Positions 9,001 through 12,000 of a DNA stretch of 64,000 bases are shown here, in pieces. Position 1 is the first letter of the stretch. Every line of letters starts with the position of its first letter. Source of the DNA: a plasmid; the NCBI RefSeq assembly GCF_988242995.1, contig NZ_OZ547044.1; one strand, given 5' to 3'. Position numbers: made by a program.

Positions 9001-12000
9001 ATGTCGCGTAGGGACGGAATACGAAAACGTAAACCCCCATTTTTGCGCCGCAGAGCGATGAATGCGTTGCTCATGGCGATGTGTTTTTATTACGATCCCC
9101 TGTCAAATAAAGTTCTGCGCTCACTCAGGGAGATTGCCCTGGAGTGCGGACTTGCAACTAAATCTCTTTCTGGCGAAGTGTCCATTACACGAGCAATCAG
9201 GGCACTGGAATCGCTGGAAAAAGATTTTGAATTTGTTGCCTGCTCATCGGATTGCTATTCAACTGCTGAGATTTTTTTCACCCCTAAGCTGTTCGAATTT
9301 CTTGGCGTATTTCCACTCTCTCTGAGCGAAGCCAGACTGAAGTGTCTGGCCGCCAAAAACAGCGGCAGGGAGAGTGCAGATGAGTAATGCGCACAATCCG
9401 CAACACTGGAGTCAGCTGGATATGGATGAACAGATCCGTTTCTGGCAGGGGGTAGAGGACGGCCATGTGGCATCTTTTCTGGTTTCCCCGGAGAAGAAAT
9501 CTACCCGTCGCCGGCGCGGCGAGCACTCCACAAAACCCAAATGTGAAAACCCGACCTGGTTTCGACCGGAGCATTACAAAAAACTGGGTGGCCAGCTGGG
9601 GCACGCCTATAACCGTCTTGTTCAAAAAGATCGCACCACTGGTGAGGTGCGACTGCGTATGCACGTATCGCTTCATCCGCTGTACGTCAGGGAACGTCGT
9701 CGGGCTGGCCGCCGGTATGGCTTCCGGCCGGAAAAGCAACGTCTGCTGGATGCTATCTGGCCAGTGCTGATCAGCTTCTGTGATGCCGGCAAGCTGACGG
9801 TCGGTATGTGTATTTCTCGTCTGGCAAAAGAACTCAGCCAGAAAGACAGTCATGGAAAAGTTATTCCGGAAACAGAGGTAACAGTCTCACGTCTGTCCCG
9901 GTTGATTGACGAACAGGTTCGTTTTGGTGTCCTGGCTGTATCTGAAGAAAATAGCTGGGACAGGGAATCCCGTACCTGGCTTCCTAAATACGTCTATATC
10001 ACCGCGTTAGGGTTTCAGATGCTGGGAGTGGATCTGGAAAAACTTGATGCGGAACAACAAAAAAAGCTCCGGCAAAGCGAAGAGCGTCGTCGTCTTATCG
10101 AGGAGGGGATTCTGCGTGAAGATGAGGAGATCTCCCCGTGTGCAGCACGTGAGCGCTGGTACCGTCAAAAAACTCTCGATGCACTGAGGTTCCGTCGGCA
10201 GCGTGGCGCCGAACGTAAACGAGCTAACCGCCTGGCCAGATATTCTCGTGAGCGCCAGATTCACGAAATGTCGCTTCATATCCTGAAGACAATGCCGGCA
10301 GACGAGGCTTACTGGTGTACAACGGAGCGGCTGCAGCAGCTGGCCATTCAGAACCTGTATCAGCGGCACTGTTGCAAATAGTCGGTGGTGATAAACTTAT
10401 CATCCCCTTTTGCTGATGGAGCTGTACATGAACCCATTCAAAGGCCGGCATTTTCAGCGTGACATCATTCTGTGGGCCGTACGCTGGTACTGCAAATACG
10501 GCATCAGTTACCGTGAGCTGCAGGAGATGCTGGCTGAACGCGGAGTGAATGTCGATCACTCCACGATTTACCGCTGGGTTCAGCGTTATGCGCCTGAAAT
10601 GGAAAAACGGCTGCGCTGGTACTGGCGTAACCCTTCCGATCTTTGCCCGTGGCACATGGATGAAACCTACGTGAAGGTCAATGGCCGCTGGGCGTATCTG
10701 TACCGGGCCGTCGACAGCCGGGGCCGCACTGTCGATTTTTATCTCTCCTCCCGTCGTAACAGCAAAGCTGCATACCGGTTTCTGGGTAAAATCCTCAACA
10801 ACGTGAAGAAGTGGCAGATCCCGCGATTCATCAACACGGATAAAGCGCCCGCCTATGGTCGCGCGCTTGCTCTGCTCAAACGCGAAGGCCGGTGCCCGTC
10901 TGACGTTGAACACCGACAGATTAAGTACCGGAACAACGTGATTGAATGCGATCATGGCAAACTGAAACGGATAATCGGCGCCACGCTGGGATTTAAATCC
11001 ATGAAGACGGCTTACGCCACCATCAAAGGTATTGAGGTGATGCGTGCACTACGCAAAGGCCAGGCCTCAGCATTTTATTATGGTGATCCCCTGGGCGAAA
11101 TGCGCCTGGTAAGCAGAGTTTTTGAAATGTAAGGCCTTTGAATAAGACAAAAGGCTGCCTCATCGCTAACTTTGCAACAGTGCCCGCCAGTACCAGCGCA
11201 GCCGTTTTTCCATTTCAGGCGCATAACGCTGAACCCAGCGGTAAATCGTGGAGTGATCGACATTCACTCCGCGTTCAGCCAGCATCTCCTGCAGCTCACG
11301 GTAACTGATGCCGTATTTGCAGTACCAGCGTACGGCCCACAGAATGATGTCACGCTGAAAATGCCGGCCTTTGAATGGGTTCATGTGCAGCTCCATCAGC
11401 AAAAGGGGATGATAAGTTTATCACCACCGACTATTTGCAACAGTGCCACAGAAAATTACCTGAACTGCGTCAACTCGGAGTCTGGCCGCGTGCGCGTGGA
11501 AGCAAAGCGGGCGAGCGAAGAATACGGGCGAGTGCTGCGGCGCTATCCGCTGAAACCCGGCGAGACGGTCGAGCGTCCGCAACGCGGGGAAGTCGTCAGC
11601 AGCTCCGGGGTTCTCCCCCCACTGGACCCAGGCGAATACTAAGCGCGGCGGTGTGTAATAGACGGAGCGCGAGGCGACTACTGGTCAGGGTTTGCGCAAG
11701 GCGGGTGTGTAATAGACGGGAGGGGATCGATCCGGCGATCCAGCCTGTGGATAGTCCGTCTATTACCCACCCGGTTCCGTCGTTTACCCACCCAACCCCG
11801 TCTATTACCCACCGGAAACCGTCTATTACCCACCGAGGGGTTCTATAAGCAACTGATAATGAAGGTAAATTTTGCCTTCTGATTCCCTAAAACTCTTTAA
11901 AACAAAAAAAACATATATAAAACGTGTAGCCCTGGGGAAAACAGCCCGTGGAATTATGGACAATCCGGCAAGCCGGATACCTGCCTAACCGCTTCGCGGT

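Follow-up and report, generated by a model that had tools for sequence, protein, structure and literature searches.

A probable orphan replication origin of the pVS1/RPA-RepA family captured in an IS26-bounded unit

The segment at 11650-11925 of the window (the whole 64,000-nucleotide stretch of the plasmid contig NZ_OZ547044.1 that was analysed) is very probably, at about 85%, the orphan replication origin (oriV) of a theta-replicating iteron plasmid of the pVS1/RPA-RepA family. Judging from sequence and layout, it would have been captured by IS26 without its repA gene and would be carried as a passive passenger. The iteron variant CCGTCTATTACCCACC is widespread and previously undescribed, and it occurs in none of the searchable papers. 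The replicon family itself is already known.

The array appears intact, yet should be silent here. No cognate RPA RepA is encoded in the 64-kb window (tblastn with the RepA of the donor-type contig L012, E ≤ 1); thus, the array should not fire unless a cognate RepA is encoded elsewhere in the cell, beyond the 64 kb of the host replicon covered here. Weak tblastn matches of related RepA proteins at 34.6 kb and 42.2 kb lie inside Tn3-family transposases and were discarded as spurious. The first-pass annotation, made from the sequence alone, had described the repeats as having no rep gene beside them. This is correct for the cognate rep, but not for rep genes in general, as an unrelated repA of the IncFII/L-M type (9374-10381) is located 1.3 kb upstream of the array. 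It lies to the left of the IS26 copies, and its final codons extend into IS26. The use of iterons is not known for the IncFII/L-M-type RepA family, and its position beside the array is thus considered to be accidental.

The features of the captured segment and its left border are as follows.

11185-11447, minus strand: partial IS26 of 263 bp with its terminal inverted repeat at 11434-11447, identified by BLASTN with the IS26 of pKPN5.
11448-11642, plus strand: 3' part of orf118, codons 55-118 and the stop codon, with a 100% match to residues 55-118 of the protein P0018.
11650-11665, minus strand: inverted iteron copy 1, which reads CCGTCTATTACACACC on the minus strand and occupies the homologous position in relatives.
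11704-11719, minus strand: inverted iteron copy 2, identified by sequence match and aligned relatives.
11746-11754, minus strand: DnaA-box-like site TGTGGATAG, the reverse complement of CTATCCACA, which matches the DnaA-box consensus TTATCCACA at 8 of 9 positions.
11756-11834, plus strand: four direct iterons, starting at 11756, 11777, 11798, and 11819.
11840-11925, no strand: A/T-rich tract with a G+C content of 27-32%, the presumed DNA-unwinding element.
11948-12073, minus strand: structured non-coding element of 126 nt, ~85% identical to its counterparts in PromA plasmids.
12097-12160, minus strand: second A/T-rich run and a G+C-rich hairpin followed by a T-run, read by eye.
12258-12563, minus strand: thermonuclease (SNase) gene remnant without the 5' end; the open reading frame (ORF) spans 12258-12593, and the homology to the intact gene stops at 12563.

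The flanks agree with the first description, in which the repeats lie between a partial IS26 and a nuclease remnant. A complete IS26 at 10365-11184 abuts the IS26 fragment on its left. Position 11447, the final base of IS26, bounds the captured segment on the left. On the right, homology with L012 ends at position 12563, and the following IS26 copy begins at 15775. The stretch at 12097-12160 looks like a terminator of the nuclease gene; a promoter and terminator consensus scan of 11400-12700 flagged nothing, including at 12097-12160.

All six repeats described in the first-pass annotation are present: two inverted copies, followed by four direct copies in 21-bp phase. GTGTGTAATAGACGG appears twice in the window, each time inside GGTGTGTAATAGACGG, at 11650-11665 and 11704-11719. 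Among the four direct copies, CCGTCTATTACCCACC is found at 11756, 11798, and 11819, while the copy at 11777 is the variant CCGTCGTTTACCCACC. Their spacing is exactly 21 bp. When the 64-kb window was searched for the 16-mer with up to 3 mismatches, there were 6 occurrences, all inside 185 bp. The chance expectation is 0.33, and 6 occurrences were reached in 0 of 100 shuffles. The DnaA-box-like site TGTGGATAG, which was absent from the earlier description, abuts the first direct iteron. The A/T-rich stretch, placed earlier around 11880-11930, was confirmed and extends further to the left; the G+C content is 27-32% across 11840-11930 and ~60% on both sides. The tract contains CCTAAAACTCTTTAAAAC at 11886-11903 and three TAAAAC repeats.

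Two mechanical ORFs, 11375-11848 on the plus strand (157 aa) and 11678-11833 on the minus strand (51 aa), cover the repeats, and the repeats could be explained by chance or as coding repeats if either ORF were a real gene. This explanation is as good as refuted by the number of occurrences and by the alignment of seven origins described below. In all relatives, the region aligns as non-coding DNA after stop codons. Public annotations of the repeat region contain only the IS26-fused orf118 tail.

Distant DNA matches to the array were found in Xanthomonas citri pXCAW19, Pseudomonas aeruginosa CP124639, and Citrobacter koseri pK4022-2. In all three, the same architecture is located immediately after a gene annotated as "replication initiator protein A". 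The initiator of CP124639 matches the Pfam family RPA (PF10134) with an E-value of 1.4e-62, and the L012 RepA is 63-65% identical to the three proteins. The layout directly after repA is seen in pXCAW19 and in 36-40-kb plasmids of Pseudomonas and Citrobacter. Its elements are at least one inverted copy, TGTGGATAG, four direct copies spaced by 21 bp, and an A/T tract with CCTAAAACTCTTTAAAAC.

The survey was extended to nine replicons of the RepA clade, namely the L012 contig, seven complete plasmids, and a further plasmid record scanned over its full length. Clusters of the motif (16-mer, up to 3 mismatches) in 21-bp phase were observed in eight of the nine. The carriers are from Acidithiobacillus, Comamonas, Kozakia, Acidovorax, P. 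aeruginosa (two plasmids), and X. citri, together with L012, and they span Alpha-, Beta-, and Gammaproteobacteria and Acidithiobacillia. The cluster is located at the 3' end of repA in seven surveyed replicons, most with one inverted copy over the stop codon. At the window locus, this copy is missing because the array follows orf118 and not repA, both in the window and in L012. The iteron consensus of the RPA-RepA plasmids (pXCAW19, CP124639/pK4022-2, and those of Comamonas, Kozakia, Acidithiobacillus, and Acidovorax) is the same as in the window or one base off. The number and phase of the iterons, the DnaA box, and the A/T-tract motif are also equal, although their RepA proteins are merely 57-65% identical to the L012 RepA and their backbones differ. 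A scan for the exact pattern in one genome per species, with the IS26 junction excluded, returned zero.

Seven origins were aligned. All contain an inverted iteron, an invariant TGTGGAT, and four phased iterons in which CCGT..TT....ACC is invariant. CCTAAAACT is invariant in 7 of 7, and CCTAAAACTCTTTAAAAC is identical in 6 of 7, including the pVS1-like origin.

The first-pass annotation had left open whether the repeats resemble an iteron-type origin or a partition site. A partition centromere of the parC/parS type, bound by a small adaptor protein instead of an initiator, would be compatible with the short direct and inverted repeats, a feature shared by type Ib and type II centromeres, and genes for ParA and a small ORF are present just upstream of repA in pXCAW19 and the Kozakia and Acidithiobacillus plasmids. 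However, the par genes of the carriers vary: ParA with a small ORF (102 aa in one type), ParA-ParG, StbB, or none nearby. The transfer genes vary too (MOBQ or MOBP), with different MOB and type IV secretion modules. The motif stays constant next to all these par arrangements. Constancy of the motif against variable par and transfer genes indicates that it tracks the initiator and not the partition system. Furthermore, seven replicons have a copy lying across the stop codon of repA, each of the aligned origins includes a DnaA box and an A/T-rich unwinding tract, and there are no par genes near either iteron cluster of L012. A partition centromere is thus highly improbable. The origin half of the earlier proposal is supported by the homology in sequence and layout to RPA-repA origins, including the pVS1-like one, and the partition half is not, as the motif follows the RepA clade whatever the par genes are.

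The link to pVS1 came from the A/T tract. CCTAAAACTCTTTAAAAC suggested the pVS1 origin used in binary vectors, and this was taken as a lead. A sequence that is presumably the pVS1 oriV matches Pseudomonas putida pVIM_Pse-KSS435 at 94.7%, directly after a gene for an RPA-family RepA. This RepA agrees with the published residue positions of pVS1 RepA at 13 of 14, while shifted registers gave 4 or fewer (identities of the mutant residues from the supplement of PMC12147919). The minimal pVS1 replicon is composed of repA and oriV (Heeb et al. 2000, as cited in PMC12147919). For the functional status of pVS1-type origins, we rely on the studies referenced in PMC12147919.

The pVS1-like replicon of pVIM_Pse-KSS435 shares with the captured segment an initiator of the RPA family (62% identical to the L012 RepA), TGTGGATAG abutting the first of four direct 16-nt iterons with a spacing of 21-22 bp, and an A/T tract with the identical CCTAAAACTCTTTAAAAC. 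It has an inverted iteron over the repA stop codon. The iterons themselves differ at 6 of 16 positions (CCGTCTATTACCCACC in the window and CCGTACATTGGGAACC in pVIM_Pse-KSS435), a divergence that would probably place the two in different specificity groups. In contrast to pVS1, the main array is 1.8 kb from repA and follows an unrelated gene in L012, and there is no repA in the 64-kb window.

L012 represents the donor type. It is a 12.6-kb metagenome contig from the Logan assembly of SRR9875062, and it is 98.4% identical to the window at 11448-12563. Within the array, a single base differs, in one inverted copy. The gene order of L012 begins with repA (RPA, minus strand), two small ORFs, a resolvase gene, and orf118. 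These are followed by the six-iteron array with the A/T tract, the structured element, an intact SNase gene, hns, and VirB-type transfer genes. The RepA is 402 aa long and belongs to PF10134. The array is ~1.8 kb from repA, which is on the opposite strand to orf118, and the inverted copies at 3404-3473 come after orf118. Three additional copies of the same iteron are found at the 3' end of repA, one of them across the stop codon at 434-449. The type IV secretion transfer genes are 77% identical to the trw genes of IncW plasmids.

The backbone of L012 was not seen in any record of the plasmid collection. Matches to L012 at 95-99% were obtained for ~460 records, and all of them are confined to the 1.1-kb slice 3202-4317. 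These observations identify the donor type as an uncatalogued plasmid in which a pVS1-family replicon is combined with an IncW-like transfer system. pP43A-1, which contains a 94% copy, was considered as the ancestor and rejected; it appears to be an error-rich assembly with few called genes.

The ORF tail upstream of the repeats ends at 11642 and is cut by IS26, as first described. The earlier suggestion that the cognate rep or par gene terminates in this tail does not hold. An exhaustive protein search with the 64-aa tail retrieved the intact P0018, a protein of 118 aa with an N-terminal signal peptide, while a word-indexed protein search retrieved only IS26-truncated or error-ridden copies. 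P0018 is encoded on one contig only, L012. Neither the tail nor the intact orf118 product matches any family in Pfam or NCBIfam. The tail in the correct frame shows no similarity to the C-termini of two RepA proteins (BLASTP E ≥ 0.37). An origin of the tail from a rep gene of the Pfam RPA family was ruled out on this basis, and repA of L012 is 1.8 kb away on the other strand. The sole homologues of the orf118 product are signal-peptide proteins of 126-137 aa. One of them, of 126 aa and with a signal peptide, is encoded on a Leisingera plasmid beside type IV secretion genes and shows 51% identity over 37 aa.

The 126-nt element to the right of the A/T tract is also present in pIPO2T, pYK0709-104, pS28-3, and pYKBG020, and part of it in pSB102. 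The PromA copies are located ~400 nt upstream of the orf-traA(slt)-traB(topA) cluster. Three short hairpins, whose stems are invariant and whose loops vary, are combined in the element with long-range pairing. When folding was computed for single-stranded DNA, the minus strand reached -47.2 kcal/mol (z = -7.4), and the plus strand had z = -4.3. Compensatory pairs account for 3 of the 60 pairs of the consensus, with just two lineages to compare. No Rfam family matches the element; a hit to mir-3165 was far under the gathering score and is attributed to chance. The idea that the element always adjoins the PromA oriV was dropped, as no cluster of PromA iterons lies next to it in PromA-beta plasmids. 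The element could be a single-strand priming signal or a small RNA.

By analogy with other iteron origins (reviewed in PMC4980987 and PMC4081077), the following steps are proposed for initiation and its control. On the native plasmid, the four iterons phased at 21 bp would be bound by RepA (Pfam RPA). With host DnaA at the neighbouring box, RepA would melt the A/T-rich tract so that the helicase can be loaded. Control of copy number through RepA pairing (handcuffing) would probably be the task of the two inverted copies. A single IS26 event would then have taken a 1.1-kb slice, comprising the 3' half of orf118, oriV, the structured element, and the 5'-truncated nuclease gene. The donor repA, 1.8 kb to the left, would have been left behind at capture. 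Since then, the slice would have been spreading passively as the left end of the IS26-cld-IS26 unit.

The classical iteron origins RK2 oriV/TrfA, pPS10, pSC101, and F oriS likewise combine phased direct repeats with a DnaA box and an A/T-rich unwinding element, and inverted copies serve control in them (reviewed in PMC4980987 and PMC4081077). The initiator family is, however, unrelated to those of the classical origins, and placing an iteron over the rep stop codon is a peculiarity of the RPA-RepA family.

The published IS26-cld-IS26 unit (PMC7319535) begins on its left with the captured segment, and the same IS26 junction is found in many replicons. Published descriptions of the unit refer to its contents as "genes of unknown function", and no mention of an origin was found in the published account. 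The window at 11447-12150 matches ~450 plasmid records at 99% or more, mostly from Klebsiella, and the match begins with the last base of IS26, where the query itself starts. The IncR plasmid pKPN5 has a 100% identical copy of the window at 11448-16000. One IS26-mediated capture is the simplest reading of this pattern.

Such captures have precedents. Other replicon pieces are present in IS26-bounded resistance regions, namely the RSF1010 remnants beside sul2-strAB and the "repAciN" fragment beside armA. These are likewise pieces of a foreign replicon, captured once, bounded by IS26, and now widespread as passengers. They differ in that a truncated rep survives there, whereas here the origin is intact and rep is missing.

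The segment is present in 58 of 5,426 complete E. coli genomes. Seven E. coli copies are chromosomal, and one record contains 14 copies. At least 11 E. coli records among the matches listed show further deletions from the left end, with starting points in orf118, in or between the iterons, or in the A/T-rich tract. The deletions that remove iterons and the chromosomal copies fit passenger DNA. As all copies are at least 99% identical, conservation is uninformative on selection.

Instead of being a passenger, the array could be active in trans. It could act as a sink or handcuffing partner of RepA, and so as an incompatibility determinant, or as an extra origin fired by the RepA of a co-resident RPA-family plasmid. 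Suitable partners exist: the direct iterons of CP124639 and pK4022-2 have the consensus CCGTCTATTACCCACC, the same as in the window, and RPA-family plasmids of 34-54 kb with the same iteron consensus are found in 10 of the 5,426 complete E. coli genomes and also in Klebsiella, Citrobacter, and Enterobacter. The iterons of F, P1, RK2, and R6K cause incompatibility when cloned. The array and an RPA-family plasmid were observed together in 0 E. coli genomes, where only 0.1 was expected, so this absence carries no information. The loss of iterons by secondary IS26 deletions in several records and the tolerance of chromosomal copies both argue against selection for such a role, and activity in trans is considered distinctly unlikely. 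A related proposal joins a functional orphan origin, acting through RepA titration or pairing as a barrier or fired in trans, with the 126-nt element as an undescribed portable priming signal of the G4/ssi-like type; this is considered unlikely. If titration or pairing of RepA by orphan iterons were true, it would form an incompatibility barrier to RPA-family plasmids.

The reading as a passive orphan origin gives an annotation to a stretch that, in hundreds of records of clinical plasmids, is either called "hypothetical protein" or has no annotation. Hundreds of clinical plasmids of Klebsiella and E. coli would accordingly be carriers of an inert-looking origin, and tools for replicon typing or origin prediction could take the array for a live replicon. 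The iteron type CCGTCTATTACCCACC is now defined for a RepA clade covering four proteobacterial classes. If the array interacts with co-resident RPA-family plasmids, it may affect plasmid compatibility in Enterobacterales.

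The second iteron cluster of the donor lies at the 3' end of the RPA-family repA carried by L012, the near-ancestral metagenome contig. One iteron is placed over the repA stop codon; there is also a short A/T-rich stretch, and then two direct iterons 29 bp apart. With this cluster counted, the donor plasmid has nine iterons in all, and 3 kb separates its two clusters. The iterons of p12NE515 are of two variants, CCGTACTTTGCACACC and CCGTACATTACCCACC, which alternate immediately past its RPA repA. For the pMATVIM-7 plasmid group, iterons near repA were reported as not found (PMC9501424).

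Features of the related sequences
L012 298-449: second, smaller cluster of iterons, at the repA 3' end
L012 3040-3396: gene for P0018, the intact orf118 protein
L012 3702-3827: 126-nt non-coding element (window 11948-12073; also L007 4001-4128, and L008, L013 and L014)
L009 2839-3219: orf118 family member
L020 (P. aeruginosa p12NE515) 1111-1290: alternating iteron variants, directly 3' of RPA repA

The 126-nt element shows ~85% identity between the pVS1-family fragment and PromA plasmids that are otherwise unrelated to it. It contains three hairpins, whose stems are invariant and whose loops are variable; compensatory changes occur at 3 of 60 pairs. The minus strand folded as single-stranded DNA gave z = -7.4, and no family in Rfam matched the element. 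The element is a candidate for a single-strand priming signal, or alternatively for an RNA.

The orf118 relatives constitute a small family of signal-peptide proteins of 118-137 aa, in which no Pfam domain was found. Its other members come from Rhodobacterales; one of them is encoded on a Leisingera plasmid, next to type IV secretion genes.

The IS26-captured segment that holds the orphan origin is observed in E. coli genome records, including NZ_OZ510751.1, NZ_CP063350.1 and NZ_CP178703.1. Seven copies are chromosomal. One plasmid record contains 14 copies, which probably represent IS26-mediated tandem amplification. Stepwise deletions at the left end are seen in 11 E. coli records among the matches listed, with starts at query positions 158 to 456.

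Features of the window
8836-9387: second IncFII-type RepA, N-terminal 183 aa only, preceding the next gene
9374-10381: IncFII/L-M-type repA (NF040977, 302 bits)
10365-11447, 15775, 18656, 22076, 25082, 39382, 61000: IS26
32612-35509: Tn3-family transposase gene
39611-43108: second Tn3-family transposase gene, near-identical to the first

IS26 is present in the 64-kb window as seven complete copies, together with a 263-bp fragment that is located beside the orphan origin segment and adjoins a complete IS26 of opposite orientation. The reading frame of the second Tn3-family transposase gene (39611-43108) is joined at its upstream end to IS26-derived sequence. The final codons of the IncFII/L-M-type repA extend into IS26 at 10365, which severed this gene from its former downstream sequence. 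Hence this Rep gene, lacking its downstream sequence, and the orphan origin, lacking its Rep, are 1.3 kb apart; they are not cognate.
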